Shown here piece after piece: positions 1,014 to 64,000 of a DNA stretch of 64,000 nt. The notes below the pieces were generated by a model that had not been told where the DNA came from, searched no databases, and saw nothing but the letters and a program-made list of their open reading frames with translations. The stretch comes from Candidatus Shapirobacteria bacterium. GTDB lineage: Bacteria; Patescibacteriota; Microgenomatia; UBA12405. The stretch lies in the NCBI GenBank assembly GCA_028704885.1, contig JAQWEN010000001.1, positions 427,999-491,998 on the forward strand, written 5' to 3'. Position numbers and translations under genes: made by a program. Position 1 is the stretch's first letter. The number at the start of each line of letters is the position of its first letter.

Positions 1014-1782
1014 GGTGGTTTAGATAGATGGCACGAGTGCAGAATTTTTCAACTTGGCCAAGGCTATGGGAAACAAAAATTATAGTAATATCTTTTGATT
1101 TTTTAAATTCTTCCATTTTGGCAAAACATTTTTCTTGGAAAGCAGAGTCACCTACCGCAAGAATTTCATCGACAATTAAAATTTCTGGATGAACGTGAAT
1201 AGCCACGGCAAAAGCCAGGCGCATATACATACCTGAAGAATAATGTTTGACTGGTTGGTCTATAAATTCCCAAAGTTCAGCAAAATCAACAATTGATTTG
1301 TAACTTTGATCGATTTCTTTGCGTTTAAGGCCAAGAATGGCACCATTTAGATAAATATTTTCTTTACCAGTTAGTTCTGGATGGAAACCGGCACCAAGCT
1401 CGATTAGAGGTGAGATTTTGCCCTTGACATATACTTTTCCACTAGTAGGCCACATAACACCGGCAATGAGCTTTAGAATAGTAGATTTACCACTGCCATT
1501 GGGGCCGATAATGCCAACCGTCTCCCCTTTTTTTATTTCAAAACTAATGTCATTTAGGGCCGTAAAACTTTCACTAGTTTTTTCGCCGCGAATTAGAGCG
1601 GGAAGAAATTCTTTGAAGGTTTTATGACTTAATTTGCTAAATTGTTTGGAAACATGATCAAATTTAATGACTATTTGATCTGGTTCGCTAGTACGCTGGT
1701 TCGCTAGTACGCTGGAACTTTGAAGTTTTGGTTCGCTAGTTCGCTGGTTCGCTGGAACTTTTGAACTCTGTTTATTGATCAT
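952..1782 (-). CDS. wzt: ABC transporter ATP-binding protein for a polysaccharide exporter (Wzt/TagH/KpsT-like), lacking a C-terminal carbohydrate-binding domain
   Basis: Walker A GIIGPNGSGKSTILKLIAG, the ABC signature YSSGMYMRLAFAVAI and Walker B ILIVDEILAVGD. It sits next to an ABC-2 permease. About 35 aa precede the usual N-terminal IVIKFDHVSKQF motif, and that extension is encoded by a tandem DNA repeat. Confidence 0.8.
   Translation of the reverse strand: MINKQSSKVPANQRTSEPKLQSSSVLANQRTSEPDQIVIKFDHVSKQFSKLSHKTFKEFLPALIRGEKTSESFTALNDISFEIKKGETVGIIGPNGSGKSTILKLIAGVMWPTSGKVYVKGKISPLIELGAGFHPELTGKENIYLNGAILGLKRKEIDQSYKSIVDFAELWEFIDQPVKHYSSGMYMRLAFAVAIHVHPEILIVDEILAVGDSAFQEKCFAKMEEFKKSKDITIIFVSHSLGQVEKFCTRAIYLNHHEIQCDTTPTAAVKKYSNGQ
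1681..1768. repeat. Degenerate tandem repeat with 16-nt periodicity (units tggttcgctagtacgc x2, tggaactttgaagttt, tggttcgctagttcgc, tggttcgc, tggaacttttgaactc), lying inside the 5' end of wzt
   Basis: Read directly from the sequence. It encodes the 48-nt-periodic peptide PANQRTSEP...ANQRTSEP in the Wzt N-terminal extension. A related copy lies at 2142-2170 on the other side of the four-helix-bundle gene. Confidence 0.7.
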
Positions 1783-2134
1783 TGTTATATTTTACCTTAG
1801 TAATAAAAGAATTTAGCATTTTAGCTAATGATTCATATTGATCTAAAAGAGCTTTTGCTTGTGATTTTTCAATATAACCTATGTCTTGGCTAAAAAGTAT
1901 AAAATTTTGAGTTTCATAAAGAGAACCTTTGGACTGATACAGGAATTGAATAAATTCTTTGTTGCCCTTACGTCCAAAACCTTCGGCAATATTAGCAGAG
2001 ATAGAAGTGGATGCTCTTTGTAGTTGAGATATTATTCCAAATATTTCTGATTTTGGAAATGTTTGGGTTATCTTATATATGGAAATAGCTAGTTTATTAG
2101 CTTCTTTCCAAATGTTTAAATCTGTAAAATTCAT
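1772..2134 (-). CDS. Four-helix-bundle protein of the 23S rRNA intervening-sequence protein family (TIGR02436/PF05635-like; same family as DGR Avd)
   Basis: 120 aa with the family hallmarks W.EA..L...IY..T..FPK.E..G...Q..RA..SI.ANIAEG..R....EF..FL..S.GS..E.Q. Its stop overlaps the wzt start by 11 nt. It is bracketed by copies of the GGTTCGCTAGTAC(G/A)CTGGTTCG repeat. Confidence 0.8.
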   Translation of the reverse strand: MNFTDLNIWKEANKLAISIYKITQTFPKSEIFGIISQLQRASTSISANIAEGFGRKGNKEFIQFLYQSKGSLYETQNFILFSQDIGYIEKSQAKALLDQYESLAKMLNSFITKVKYNNDQ

Positions 2135-2234: not shown

Positions 2235-3035
2235 CTAAATGTTATCGGCGAAGATTTTTTCGCGAGATTTAAAATAACGAAGACCAAATAAAAGAACAAC
2301 AAAGGAAAGAATAGTGGCAATTATGAGACTAGAATATTTTGGAACTCCACCGCTAAGAATAACTTGACGATAAGCATTAGTAATAACAGCCATAGGATTT
2401 AATTGAAAAATGATCTTATATTTTGCAGGAATCATGTCGGCTGAGTAAATTATCGGGGTGACATACATCCATAAAAGTAAAATCATAGATAATAAATATT
2501 GAACGTCGCGATAAAGAAGATTGGCAGCAGCAAAGAAAAGAGATAGACCGAGAGTGAAAATTTGTTGAATGAAAAAGATTGGAATAACCCAAAGAATATT
2601 AATATTTATGGGCATGTGATAGGCAATCATATAGATGATTAAAACTATGTTGGCAAAAAGGAAATCAATTATTTTGGCGATGATAGTGGAAATTACTAAT
2701 ATAGTTCGGGGAAAATAAATTTTAGTAATTAAACCACCGGCACTAACCAGAGAAGCAGAGGCAGAAGAAAGAGAATTGGAAAAAAGAGTCCACGGTAAGA
2801 GGGCGACAAAAAGAAATATAGAATAAGGAATGTGTCCCGAAGAATAAGTTGGAATGCGCATAATAATGGAAAAGGCAAAAGACATAACCAACATTTGGGC
2901 CAAAGGATTTAAAATTACCCAAAAATAACCAAGAATGGATTGTTTATAGCGGGCTTTAACTTCACGGCCAACCATCTGCCAAAGTAATTCGCGCCATTTA
3001 TGAATAGCTTGGATTTCTTTTATAAGCGATAACAT
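2235..3035 (-). CDS. wzm: ABC-2 type polysaccharide exporter permease (Wzm/TagG/KpsM-like)
   Basis: N-terminus WRELLWQMVGREVKARYKQSILGYFWVILNPLAQMLVMSFAFSII is the classic ABC-2 permease signature. The protein is 266 aa with about 6 TM segments and sits upstream of wzt. Confidence 0.8.
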   Translation of the reverse strand: MLSLIKEIQAIHKWRELLWQMVGREVKARYKQSILGYFWVILNPLAQMLVMSFAFSIIMRIPTYSSGHIPYSIFLFVALLPWTLFSNSLSSASASLVSAGGLITKIYFPRTILVISTIIAKIIDFLFANIVLIIYMIAYHMPININILWVIPIFFIQQIFTLGLSLFFAAANLLYRDVQYLLSMILLLWMYVTPIIYSADMIPAKYKIIFQLNPMAVITNAYRQVILSGGVPKYSSLIIATILSFVVLLFGLRYFKSREKIFADNI

Positions 3036-61002: not shown

Positions 61003-62481
61003 TTAATTTTTTGTACCATCTGGGTTTTTGACAAGTTTGAATATTTTTATGCCGTTGATCTCCCATTGATTATCAATTTTGGCCCAGCCAAAAGCAGCAA
61101 CTGACCATTCTGGATTACCGATAGGATTACATTCTATTTGGAAAGGTTCACAAACAACAAAAAGCTGGTCAGCTAATTTCTCTGGTAAATTGACTATTTT
61201 AGCCTGTTTAGTAGCTAAAATATAACGATATGGAGGATCATAGTTTTGTTTAGCAAGAAGGGCAAAATTAAAATCTTGGTTATTAGAATTGGCAATAATA
61301 GTATCAGCAATTTGATTAACAGTTTTTAGTTGAGAGTTAGGTTGGTAACGAAATGGATTATTAGTAAAAGAAAAGATAGTTATTAGGATAAAAAATGGAA
61401 CACCAATAAGTTTAAATTTATTAATTAAAAAAGCAGCAAGAATAAAAACTGAAGGAAAAAGGAAAGCAAAATAATGAGCATAGATATGTTGTTTATAAAG
61501 AGCCAAAGCAATTAATCCTGATAAGTACCAGAAAAAAATAATCCAAAAAGAAGATTTTTGTTTTTTATATTTAAGAAGAAGAGGTATAAGACAAAGAGTA
61601 AAAATAATACTAATTATTATGCCGACAGTTTTGTCTCTGCCAGTAAGAAGATCCGTATTAACTTGATTAAAGATACTTGGGAGCTCAGGAATGGCTTTGT
61701 AGGCTTTAATATTAACAGTGGTTTCACGATAAGTGAAAAAATTCAAAAGAGCTTTGGCGTTTTGACCATTGTGCTTGAGATCAAAAAGAACCTGAGGAGT
61801 GAGAGAAATAATAAAAATTAAAGCGGCTAAAAGGGTATATTTTATGAAGGGTTTTAAATTTGGTGATTTTGTTTTGATAAATTTAACAAGGTTATAAAGC
61901 CAAAAAAGACCAGTAAATGGTAAAAGGGCCAATCCAAGATAATGACTATTCATCACCATAACAAAAGCTATAGAAGCATATAGGAAATAATGAAATTTTT
62001 TGGATTTGAAGCTTTCAAAAAAGAAATAAATAAAAAGGAGACTGAAAAAAGGCATGATATTGGGATTCCAGATGAAATTGGAATATTTGATAGTTACCGG
62101 AGAAATGGCATATAAAAAGGCAGCAATATAGGCGGTTTTTGGATTAAACCATTTTTTACTGATAAAAAATATAAGAGCAACTGTGGCAATACTTAATAGA
62201 GCAATAAAGATAGCGGGGCCAACTGGGTTGTAATTGGCTAATAATAAGGAAGGAGCGATTAAGTAATAAAAATAAGGGCCAAGATACATGTTGCCAATAC
62301 TAGTTTGAGGGCCGATAAAGAATAAATTACCATGTTGAAGAAAATCTTTAATAATAACCACATCTCGGCCTTGATCACCCAAGAATTCCATATAGTCAGA
62401 AATTCGGTAAAGACGAAAGAAAGAGGCAATTAAAAGAATGATTATTAAAAGCCAATATTTTTTAAGAATTTTTTTAAGCAC
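61003..62481 (-). CDS. PMT_2/GT39-like GT-C membrane glycosyltransferase (paralog I, DxxRD variant)
   Basis: YMEFLGDQGRDVVIIKDFLQHGNLFFIGPQTSIGNMYLGPYFYY and more than 10 TM helices. The track start (TTG at 62595) overlaps the upstream GT2 by 122 nt; an in-frame GTG at 62479-62481 gives an 8-nt overlap and is preferred. Confidence 0.6.
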   Translation of the reverse strand: MLKKILKKYWLLIIILLIASFFRLYRISDYMEFLGDQGRDVVIIKDFLQHGNLFFIGPQTSIGNMYLGPYFYYLIAPSLLLANYNPVGPAIFIALLSIATVALIFFISKKWFNPKTAYIAAFLYAISPVTIKYSNFIWNPNIMPFFSLLFIYFFFESFKSKKFHYFLYASIAFVMVMNSHYLGLALLPFTGLFWLYNLVKFIKTKSPNLKPFIKYTLLAALIFIISLTPQVLFDLKHNGQNAKALLNFFTYRETTVNIKAYKAIPELPSIFNQVNTDLLTGRDKTVGIIISIIFTLCLIPLLLKYKKQKSSFWIIFFWYLSGLIALALYKQHIYAHYFAFLFPSVFILAAFLINKFKLIGVPFFILITIFSFTNNPFRYQPNSQLKTVNQIADTIIANSNNQDFNFALLAKQNYDPPYRYILATKQAKIVNLPEKLADQLFVVCEPFQIECNPIGNPEWSVAAFGWAKIDNQWEINGIKIFKLVKNPDGTKN

Positions 62482-63238
62482 GGTGAAAATTAATTTTATA
62501 CCAAAGCTTAAATAAATCAGAAAAGCTTTTAATGATAACTTTAATGTTTCTGCCCGTAGCTTGACCTTCAACCCGAGGATAATGATGAACTCCAACTTCG
62601 CTGATTTTGAAGCCAGCCTTTTTGGATTTGATTAAGAATTCACTACTAATAAAGGCTCCCCTTTCAGCTTCTAGCTTGGGAACAGTGTCAACAACCTTCT
62701 TATTGATTAGCTTGAAACCACAATCAATATCGGTGACATGAAGACCAAAAAGAACAAAAACGATGAGTTCCCAAATTTTGCTGGTAACAATGGCAGCTTT
62801 TGAGACTTGACGGGCCAAATAGTAGCCAATAATAATATCAGAATTAGTTTTTTGCTGCTTTTCAATGAGCTTAGTGATCTCAGTAAAGTCAAACTGACCA
62901 TCGGCATCAGTGAAGGCAATCCACTGATATTGAGCATTATAAAGGCCACTTTTAAGGGCGGCACCATAGCCACGATTTGGGTTGTGAGTGATGATTTTTA
63001 CTTGTTTTGGATAGTCTTTTTTAATTTCTTCTAAGACTTTGGCAGTGTTATCTTTGGAACCATCATTAATTAAAATAATTTCCCATTTTTCGGCTATTTT
63101 TTGAAGAACGGGGATGGTTTTACTGATAGTATTTTTAATGTTTTTCTCTTCGTTATAACAAGGAAAAAAGACAGAAAGCTCATTTATTAAAAATTTATTC
63201 ATGGCTAAAGTATAAGGCAAAAGAGGCTTAAAATACAA
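62474..63238 (-). CDS. Polyprenol-phosphate sugar synthase (GT2, Dpm1/GtrB/ArnC-like)
   Basis: LSVFFPCYNEEKNIKNTI...WEIILINDGSKDNT, NRGYGAALKSG, TDADGQFD, IIIGYYLAR and TDIDCGFKLINKK. Confidence 0.8.
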   Translation of the reverse strand: MYFKPLLPYTLAMNKFLINELSVFFPCYNEEKNIKNTISKTIPVLQKIAEKWEIILINDGSKDNTAKVLEEIKKDYPKQVKIITHNPNRGYGAALKSGLYNAQYQWIAFTDADGQFDFTEITKLIEKQQKTNSDIIIGYYLARQVSKAAIVTSKIWELIVFVLFGLHVTDIDCGFKLINKKVVDTVPKLEAERGAFISSEFLIKSKKAGFKISEVGVHHYPRVEGQATGRNIKVIIKSFSDLFKLWYKINFHRA

Positions 63239-63255: not shown

Positions 63256-63284
63256 TTGACAAATTGGTGAATTGGACATATAAT
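63256..63284 (+). promoter_or_regulatory. Perfect sigma70 consensus promoter TTGACA-N17-TATAAT
   Basis: TTGACA at 63256-63261, a 17-nt spacer, then TATAAT at 63279-63284. The -10 box overlaps the track's ATG at 63283, so translation probably starts downstream. Confidence 0.5.
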
Positions 63285-63312
63285 GGCCTATAATTATATA
63301 TTAATAACGCAG

Positions 63313-63933
63313 GTGAAACACAAAATATTAACTATCAGCTTTGTATTTGGGGCAATGGCGATATTATTCTTATCGTTATTCAGTCCTTCTAAGGCCTATG
63401 GTCAATCTTATTCTCAAGGTGAAAAAGCCAAACTTTCAATTGATAAAAAGATCCGATCTGTTGGTGATACTCAATATTATGACAATATTGAAGCTTCTAA
63501 TAAAACTTTTTATGAAAATGATGTAATCGAGTTTCAAATTAGAATCGAAAATATCAGCACTGAAGTGGTCTATAATATTAATACAAAAGATATTTTACCT
63601 AAATATTTAAGCTTAATCTTTTATCCTGGCACTTTTGATAAAGATCAATATATTGTTGAATGGAATATTGATAAATTAGAAGCTGGTGAAAGTAAAACAT
63701 ACTTAATTAGAGCTAAAATTAAAGATGCTACCAAGTTTAATGCTTTAACTAAACAAACTAATAAAGCTGAAGCTTGTGGTGGTGGTTCTTGTGATCAAGA
63801 CTATGCCAGTTACTTTATTGGCAAAACAACTGTACCAGCTACTGGTGCTTCTGATATAGCTTTAAAAACAATTTTAGTTATCTCAATTGCGGCTACTGGA
63901 TTTTATTTCAGAAAGTTAGCTAGAGAATATTAA
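63313..63933 (+). CDS. Secreted DUF11-like surface protein with a C-terminal sorting-signal-like tail (VPATG motif, hydrophobic helix, basic tail)
   Basis: With a GTG start at 63313 the N-terminus is (M)KHKILTISFVFGAMAILFLSLFSPSKA/YGQ, a textbook signal peptide. AGGTGA at 63311-63316 is complementary to the 16S 3' end. The mature domain resembles DUF11-type cell-surface repeats (VIEFQIRIENISTEVVYNINTKDILPKYL). The C-terminus is TVPATGASDIALKTILVISIAATGFYFRKLAREY. The track ORF starts at 63283. Confidence 0.55.
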   Translation: MKHKILTISFVFGAMAILFLSLFSPSKAYGQSYSQGEKAKLSIDKKIRSVGDTQYYDNIEASNKTFYENDVIEFQIRIENISTEVVYNINTKDILPKYLSLIFYPGTFDKDQYIVEWNIDKLEAGESKTYLIRAKIKDATKFNALTKQTNKAEACGGGSCDQDYASYFIGKTTVPATGASDIALKTILVISIAATGFYFRKLAREY

Positions 63934-63950
63934 TCTAAATTAAACCTTTG

Positions 63951-63984
63951 AAAATCCCCTGTCGAAAGATGGGGGATTTTTATT
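63951..63984 (+). terminator. Rho-independent terminator
   Basis: aaaatcccc-tgtcgaaagatg-ggggatttt forms a 9-bp stem (5 G-C pairs) that extends into a GAAA-tetraloop hairpin and is followed by a T-run. It lies 18 nt after the stop of the surface-protein gene. Confidence 0.6.
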
Positions 63985-64000
63985 ACCACATAATACGTAT

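Follow-up and report, generated by a model that had tools for sequence, protein, structure and literature searches.

Locus and gene product

The stretch of DNA analysed here comprises 64 kb of the genome of Candidatus Shapirobacteria bacterium (hereafter the window, that is, this stretch at its full length; G+C content 29 %), a representative of the Shapirobacteria and thus of the Microgenomates group of the Patescibacteria or candidate phyla radiation (CPR). Close to its right-hand end lies a gene for a small, predicted surface protein that combines a signal peptide, a single CLIPPER (DUF11) domain, and a short C-terminal tail built in the manner of a sorting signal. The following features of this gene, referred to as the CLIPPER gene, and of its 206-amino-acid (aa) product are relevant for the discussion below:

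63256..63284, plus strand: perfect sigma-70 consensus promoter (TTGACA at 63256-63261, 17-nt spacer, TATAAT at 63279-63284; 12/12 matches)
63313..63933, plus strand: coding sequence with GTG start, 206 aa plus stop (MDD2482734.1 / MDD4410572.1, "hypothetical protein PHE32_02650", Candidatus Shapirobacteria bacterium; encoded on contig JAQUEN010000001.1, 122,687 bp, of assembly GCA_028685145.1 and again on a 735-kb contig in another assembly)
63313..63402, plus strand: Sec-type signal peptide, aa 1-30, from hydropathy, the N-terminal helix 3-23 of an AlphaFold2 (AF2) model, and conservation across orthologues
63433..63819, plus strand: single CLIPPER (DUF11, PF01345) immunoglobulin (Ig)-like beta-sandwich, aa 41-169, from Pfam, AF2, and Foldseek
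63832..63846, plus strand: pentapeptide VPATG, aa 174-178, an LPXTG-type motif by its conservation and by the model matches of orthologues, with a predicted sortase cut between T177 and G178
63847..63909, plus strand: polar spacer ASDIALKT and hydrophobic membrane-spanning stretch ILVISIAATGFYF, from hydropathy, AF2, and conservation, with K185-T186 nearly invariant
63910..63930, plus strand: basic cytoplasmic tail RKLAREY (family consensus RKxARGY), the most conserved segment of the protein

A preliminary description of the window had assigned a surface protein to the open reading frame (ORF) 63283..63933 on the plus strand. This ORF is real, and its translation ends, as described, in ...YFIGKTT-VPATG-ASDIALKTILVISIAATGFYF-RKLAREY followed by the stop codon, but its start has to be shifted to the favoured GTG at 63313, which gives the 206-aa product. 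This GTG, and not the ATG at 63283, is almost certainly the real start codon, since nearly all homologues begin at the matching codon (an ATG in many of them) and since ATG 63283 sits within the -10 hexamer of the promoter, for which reason it was rejected as a start. The DNA string CAGGTG(A/G)A(A/G)CA(C/T) at 63308-63321 is conserved at the gene start and is found at the orthologous positions of loci L005, L006, and L021. Gene callers interpret it in three different ways: in some genomes it supplies the GTG start and the next two codons, in others an ATG further upstream is chosen and the string falls inside the reading frame, and in others again it resembles a Shine-Dalgarno sequence (AGGTGG) that precedes an ATG further downstream. 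Where orthologues carry an ATG at the start codon equivalent to GTG 63313, a Shine-Dalgarno sequence is missing altogether.

The signal peptide is composed of an n-region VKHK, an h-region ILTISFVFGAMAILFLSLF (a hydrophobic stretch of 19 aa), and a c-region SPSKAYG; according to the A-x-G rule, it would be cleaved after G30 and before Q31. The domain that follows matches the Pfam family CLIPPER/DUF11 (PF01345) with E = 1.2e-10 and 42.1 bits (cut-off 24.6), while its TIGR01451 score of 21.6 stays just under the cut-off of 24. An AF2 model built with 50 homologues reached a mean predicted local distance difference test (pLDDT) score of 82.5, with pLDDT >90 for the beta-sandwich at 41-169, and arranges the protein into helix 3-23, a disordered linker, the beta-sandwich, a short linker with VPATG (174-178), and helix 180-204. 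The top Foldseek match of this model in the Protein Data Bank (PDB) is 9IFR, itself a CLIPPER domain (E = 3.7e-6, target TM 0.67), followed by the isopeptide-containing pilins BcpA, SpaD, and EbpC as well as domains of antigen I/II. At the level of sequence, the family profile matched no PDB entry significantly.

The CLIPPER domain has been described as a CnaA-like Ig fold that is locked by a Lys-Asn isopeptide bond (K715-N806, with D748) and carries a CxxC disulfide nearby, and some DUF11 domains lack the isopeptide bond (PMC12617251). In the protein discussed here, K45 in the first strand, E73, D93, and N150 in a late strand are invariant in 50 sequences, and a C155/C160 pair follows N150. 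Because K45, N150, E73, and D93 are invariant, a Lys45-Asn150 isopeptide lock appears plausible. The resemblance to 9IFR, which stems from an Acinetobacter fibrillar adhesin (PMC12617251), comprises the Pfam match above the gathering threshold, the best PDB fold match, and a parallel in residues: the first-strand Lys, the late-strand Asn, and the acidic residues recall the K715/D748/N806 isopeptide of 9IFR, and the Cys pair close by recalls its CxxC disulfide. Typically, however, CLIPPER domains are arrayed in tandem along the stalks of very long adhesins, whereas here a single one accounts for essentially the whole mature protein (~147 aa), which lacks an adhesive head and has hardly any stalk.

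The C-terminal tail as a probable sorting signal

The preliminary description had reported a C-terminal tail of 34 aa with a short motif (VPATG), a hydrophobic helix of roughly 20 aa, and a basic end. This tripartite layout is present, although its dimensions had to be corrected: 33 aa extend from the V of VPATG to the last Y, and the hydrophobic core comprises ~14 aa instead of ~20 and is preceded by a polar spacer (the AF2 helix spans 180-204). Overall, 21 residues separate the G of VPATG from the R of the basic end (the spacer ASDIALK plus the core), and the hydrophobic segment TILVISIAATGFYF leads into RKLAREY, of which R200, K201, and R204 are invariant.

The family counts more than 125 orthologues (39-90 % identical) in CPR bacteria of the Microgenomates group, in which [V/I]-P-x-T-G is preserved 33 residues from the C-terminus. 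Among 5.8 billion proteins, 91 homologues at 39-90 % identity were recovered, which belong to Woesebacteria or Shapirobacteria where named. In the 90 complete tails of these homologues, which underlie all motif counts, the pentapeptide reads VPATG 44 times, IPATG 13 times, VPDTG seven times, IPNTG and IPKTG six times each, and LPETG once. P and G are invariant, T occupies position 4 in 87/90, and position 1 is filled by V (58), I (29), A (2), or L (1), while the motif starts exactly 33 residues before the C-terminus in 88/90. Mean column conservation amounts to 0.81 for the pentapeptide and 0.84 for the basic end, as compared to 0.68 for the CLIPPER domain and 0.53 for the hydrophobic core. 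Because the motif and the charged end are conserved and the core is kept in character only, this is the pattern of a sortase sorting signal.

Nor is the tail a product of chance. A screen that combined a regular expression with hydropathy (xPx[TSA][GASN], a hydrophobic stretch, and at least two K/R at the end) was positive for one of the 126 ORFs of the window. Over 413 kb (the window plus related loci), 22 of 697 ORFs were positive and all 22 belong to this CLIPPER family, with no false positive among the ~675 unrelated ORFs. Moreover, a 35-position profile of the tail gave 37 significant matches among 1.84 billion representative proteins, all of them ~200-aa family members or fragments thereof and always at the extreme C-terminus. 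As all 37 matches represent the same family, the extended signal, that is, the KT seven residues past the motif and the RKxARGY end, is specific to it.

With regard to the type of sorting signal, the curated NCBIfam model TIGR01167 (LPXTG_anchor, cut-off 15.9 bits) is instructive. It assigned 21.0 bits to the LPETG tail and 16.3 bits to an IPKTG tail, both of which thus pass the cut-off, followed by IPNTG with 15.7 and VPDTG with 13.7 bits; the LPETG orthologue (P0113) is also named "LPXTG-motif cell wall-anchored protein" in IMG. The Pfam model PF00746 (Gram_pos_anchor) matched none of the five tails tested. In its architecture, the protein is akin to Gram-positive LPXTG substrates such as S. 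aureus protein A, with which it shares a Sec signal and a pentapeptide with invariant P and G and a nearly invariant T, followed by a polar spacer that leads into a hydrophobic stretch and a positive end. It differs from them in that position 1 is V or I in 87/90 tails and L in one, in that the window's own tail goes undetected by the model, and in that the tail of this family is conserved as a sequence and not only in its general character, down to the final residue (RKxARGY).

Based on this combination of architecture, conservation, and model matches of orthologues, we consider it likely that the CLIPPER protein is an LPXTG-type sortase substrate that becomes covalently attached to peptidoglycan. 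The preliminary description had taken the non-canonical VPATG as a hint at a divergent anchoring enzyme, a suggestion that finds no support: accepted pneumococcal sortase substrates carry V or I at position 1 (RrgC, VPDTG; RrgB, IPQTG; PMC5640630), and therefore no exotic enzyme is needed for VPATG.

The two pneumococcal proteins are components of pilus-1 of S. pneumoniae and share the [V/I]-P-x-T-G pattern with the CLIPPER family, in which VPDTG itself occurs in seven members. This likeness raises the question of whether the CLIPPER protein could be a minimal pilin, either sortase-polymerised or basal, in which the threonine of [V/I]PxTG would be joined to K64 or K135 of the next subunit and not to the wall alone. 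Such signals are typical of pilins (PMC5640630), the fold matches include BcpA, SpaD, and EbpC, and two nearly invariant lysines are indeed found outside the putative isopeptide site. RrgC and RrgB are, however, multi-domain proteins encoded in an islet with class C sortases, whereas the CLIPPER protein has a single domain and no sortase or pilin gene nearby. Neither a YPKN-type pilin motif nor an E-box was seen in the alignment, the conserved neighbourhoods examined contain no pilin-specific sortase, second pilin, or second CLIPPER gene, and the CPR filaments characterised to date are type IV or Pam pili. Taken together, we regard a pilin as very unlikely.

The preliminary description had also left room for exosortase (PEP-CTERM) and archaeosortase (PGF-CTERM) systems, whose substrates have the same layout. 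The LPETG and IPKTG tails, which orthologues carry at the position of VPATG and which pass TIGR01167, point to the sortase (LPXTG) type, while exosortase and archaeosortase find no counterpart in any motif or model match. More generally, the signal might be read by an enzyme other than a sortase, be it an exosortase, an archaeosortase, a rhombosortase, or an unknown peptidase such as the C39-like cysteine peptidases encoded nearby (see the following section). The tripartite layout is common to all these systems, and one orthologue tail gave a sub-threshold match to GlyGly-CTERM (14.7 bits vs. a cut-off of 19.7), the only non-LPXTG sorting model that was matched. Nevertheless, no PEP, PGF, or GG signature precedes the helix, no PEP-CTERM or PGF-CTERM NCBIfam model matched at E <= 10, the annotated flanking genes include no exosortase-like polytopic protein, and CPR cells are without an outer membrane (PMC6744442). 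A non-sortase enzyme would thus be extremely improbable.

The preliminary description had noted that the window contains no sortase gene, and this has been borne out by every approach taken: a phmmer search with S. aureus SrtA and a scan for the TLxTC motif found no sortase in the window, a hidden Markov model (HMM) of five sortase sequences (SrtA plus PDB-derived class C and D fragments) gave a best E of 0.2, and none of the 22 ORFs of the window that have the size of a sortase matched a sortase family in Pfam. These 22 ORFs instead comprise 13 GT2 glycosyltransferases, with methyltransferase, epimerase, CofD, ABC-transporter, and rRNA-IVP families making up the rest. The sortase scans also remained empty over 454 kb (the window plus related loci), and two candidates for a cryptic sortase, a 164-aa protein in locus L001 and a 225-aa protein in locus L011, were dismissed as both lack sequence likeness to sortases and a TLxTC motif. 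When the sortase profile was run against the collection of 5.8 billion proteins, the best 120 of 3,511 matches were all class C, A, or D sortases of Firmicutes. Support for a cognate enzyme comes from the literature at the level of the clade: the sortase family fam000526 has been reported from more than half of CPR genomes and as "near ubiquitous in Microgenomates" (Méheust et al., PMC6744442), and one closed Microgenomates genome encodes a sortase (PMC7143001).

Several of these observations weigh against a sortase substrate. No sortase lies in the window, in the 10 kb on either side of it (together ~84 kb of the 122.7-kb contig), or within 10 kb of the orthologous gene in the other loci examined. 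The window's VPATG tail matches neither TIGR01167 nor PF00746 at E <= 10. The tail profile met no other protein family among the 1.84 billion representatives, with the proviso that a 35-position profile is weak and generic LPXTG-type tails lie below its reach. Finally, the extended tail (KT and the terminal RGY) is conserved more tightly than a discarded peptide seems to need.

The last point in particular would fit a tail-anchored membrane protein that is never cleaved. Here, the helix would be permanent, and P-x-T-G, KT, and RKxARGY would serve as juxtamembrane linker and as contacts to partners, conceivably the FtsEX-hydrolase machinery or GT-C glycosyltransferases. The unusually high and family-specific conservation past the pentapeptide and the lack of a sortase gene near the CLIPPER gene in any locus are in line with such a scenario, for which there is also a precedent, as PamC, PamD, and PamR, secreted CPR envelope proteins, have been proposed to stay anchored by a C-terminal helix (bioRxiv 10.64898/2026.03.03.709456). 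On the other hand, conservation within the tail is lowest (0.53) in the hydrophobic core, where a surface for helix-helix contacts would be expected, and highest in precisely those two elements that sortases read, namely the pentapeptide and the positive end. Furthermore, orthologues drift to the canonical LPETG and pass the LPXTG model. An uncleaved anchor is thus unlikely in our view, although the genomic context, described in the following, again has a bearing on it.

Genomic neighbourhood and expression

The features around the CLIPPER gene are the following:

62474..63202, minus strand: GT2 glycosyltransferase, 242 aa, divergent from the CLIPPER gene, last gene of the glycan locus and a conserved neighbour
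63949..63982, no strand assigned: 15-bp perfect hairpin flanked by A and T runs between the convergent genes (dG -21 kcal/mol, z = -4.6, 0/200 shuffles as stable)
63983..64000, minus strand: 3' end of a convergent gene for a 389-aa coiled-coil protein, the rest of which lies beyond the window (orthologues with Peptidase_C39_2 or M23)
Locus L001, 10671-20163, downstream of the window: convergent block, in the same order in L002-L010, L024, and L025

The gene order is almost invariant even where the orthologues are only ~40 % identical and consists of a glycan locus, the CLIPPER gene, and a convergent block with FtsEX, hydrolase, and LCP (LytR_cpsA_psr) genes. The convergent block begins with a coiled-coil protein of 365-406 aa (with C39_2 or M23), FtsX, FtsE, and a ~160-aa membrane protein without family, and continues with LCP, RF2, two proteins of ~130 aa (one with a weak thioredoxin match), a peptidyl-prolyl isomerase (PPIase), a second C39_2 peptidase, and BipA. 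The 389-aa coiled-coil protein of the present genome is likely the wall hydrolase that partners with FtsEX. Across lineages, the hydrolase domain of this neighbour switches between C39_2 and M23, while its position is kept.

This arrangement touches on two of the alternatives introduced above. The strict synteny of the CLIPPER gene with membrane machineries would suit an uncleaved anchor that contacts them, but the gene is convergent with the FtsEX operon and not co-transcribed with it. Similarly, the two Peptidase_C39_2 genes in the conserved downstream block could conceivably supply a non-sortase processing enzyme, but the C39_2/M23 neighbour displays the layout of coiled coil plus hydrolase that characterises FtsEX-controlled wall hydrolases.

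On the other side, the glycan locus occupies positions 1-63238 of the window, hence nearly the whole 64 kb, and extends at least 10 kb further upstream, an unusually large investment for a genome of ~0.7-0.8 Mb. The glycan genes beside the orthologues, a long run on the minus strand, encode a Polysacc_synt flippase, several PMT_2/GT-C-like membrane proteins of 480-580 aa, and GT2 enzymes. In the window, such PMT_2/GT-C-like proteins are numerous, and there are in addition a GT87-like protein, epimerases, methyltransferases, and a Wzm/Wzt-type ABC exporter (2235-3035 and 952-1782). Between the ABC-exporter genes and far from any rRNA lies a 120-aa ORF (1772-2134, minus strand) of the "23S rRNA-intervening sequence protein" family PF05635 (E = 1e-38). 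Upstream of the window (locus L026), B12-radical-SAM enzymes, a GT4 glycosyltransferase, an NTP-transferase, and an SIS protein are encoded.

Seven records of metagenome-assembled genomes (MAGs) that contain the CLIPPER gene in CPR synteny (L015, L016, L017, L019, L020, L021, and L023) are titled "uncultured Gammaproteobacteria bacterium" and are almost certainly mislabelled Patescibacteria genomes.

The promoter of the CLIPPER gene is the only perfect TTGACA-N16-18-TATAAT sequence on either strand of the window. Among 26 loci (454 kb), perfect consensus promoters are found exclusively before the orthologous gene, namely in 22 loci, and are kept even where the orthologous proteins are only ~40 % identical. 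Because the promoter stays at consensus over such a large protein divergence, it implies that expression of the CLIPPER gene would be strong and constitutive. The hairpin 3' of the gene is likely a bidirectional intrinsic terminator; it was missed by a simple terminator scan since its loop and stem did not fit the rules of that scan. With its own promoter and this hairpin, the CLIPPER gene is monocistronic. The conserved consensus promoter and the monocistronic layout together suggest that the CLIPPER protein is an abundant structural component of the envelope rather than an occasional adhesin; high abundance would also be expected of a pilin subunit.

Proposed anchoring mechanism and significance

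We propose that anchoring as a sortase substrate would proceed as follows. The 206-aa precursor would be exported by the Sec machinery, and its signal peptide removed after G30. Outside the membrane, the single CLIPPER/DUF11 Ig-like domain would fold and probably become locked by the Lys45-Asn150 isopeptide, while the C-terminal helix and the RKxAR(G/E)Y tail would keep the precursor in the membrane. A membrane sortase would then read [V/I]-P-x-T-G, cut between T177 and G178, and move the mature protein (~147 aa) onto a wall precursor. As only ~8 residues lie between the last strand of the domain and the anchoring T177, the domain would come to lie at or inside the wall instead of being raised on a stalk.

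The mechanism as such is already known, since the LPXTG signal and the CLIPPER domain are both of known kinds, and it is the organism that is unfamiliar; a literature search found no published description of this CLIPPER family. Three aspects are nonetheless unusual. Firstly, V or I and not L is the family norm at position 1, so that the commonest form is invisible to the curated anchor models. Secondly, the mature protein is one CLIPPER domain without stalk or head. Thirdly, a conserved consensus promoter is combined with a fixed place between the glycan locus and the FtsEX-hydrolase-LCP block.

The latter location invites a comparison with GspA of Actinomyces oris, a small surface protein to which the LCP enzyme LcpA adds glycans before a sortase anchors it to the wall (PMC6381275). 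Both are small proteins with a sortase signal that are tied to LCP and glycan-synthesis functions, and in every orthologous locus an LCP gene and a glycan locus (>70 kb) flank the CLIPPER gene. In the present locus, however, the LCP gene lies ~3-5 kb off on the opposite strand; the likeness is an analogy, and glycosylation of the CLIPPER protein is pure conjecture. A far-reaching and, in our estimation, unlikely extension of the sortase-substrate reading is that the CLIPPER family might provide the main sortase substrate, expressed at very high levels, of a large clade within the Microgenomates. It would be an isopeptide-locked one-domain module, fixed directly in the wall, that forms or carries the outer envelope layer, and in one version it would act as a GspA-like glycan carrier. 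In this version, the glycan would originate from the adjoining >70 kb locus and be transferred by the neighbouring LCP or PMT-like enzymes. If this were true, the promoter, the fixed locus, and the family-specific tail would be marks of a sortase and a substrate that are dedicated to each other and central to the architecture of the CPR envelope.

CPR bacteria account for a large share of bacterial diversity, and their envelope is largely uncharacterised. Because the dominant VPATG and IPATG forms of the motif escape TIGR01167 and PF00746, sortase substrates are probably under-annotated in a systematic fashion in Microgenomates and CPR genomes. Against this background, the CLIPPER protein offers a tangible candidate for covalent anchoring to the wall of Microgenomates, one that is conserved and probably abundant. 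Its defined recognition sequence ([V/I]PxTG, KT, helix, and RKxARGY) moreover renders the near-ubiquitous but as yet unstudied Microgenomates sortase amenable to experiment.

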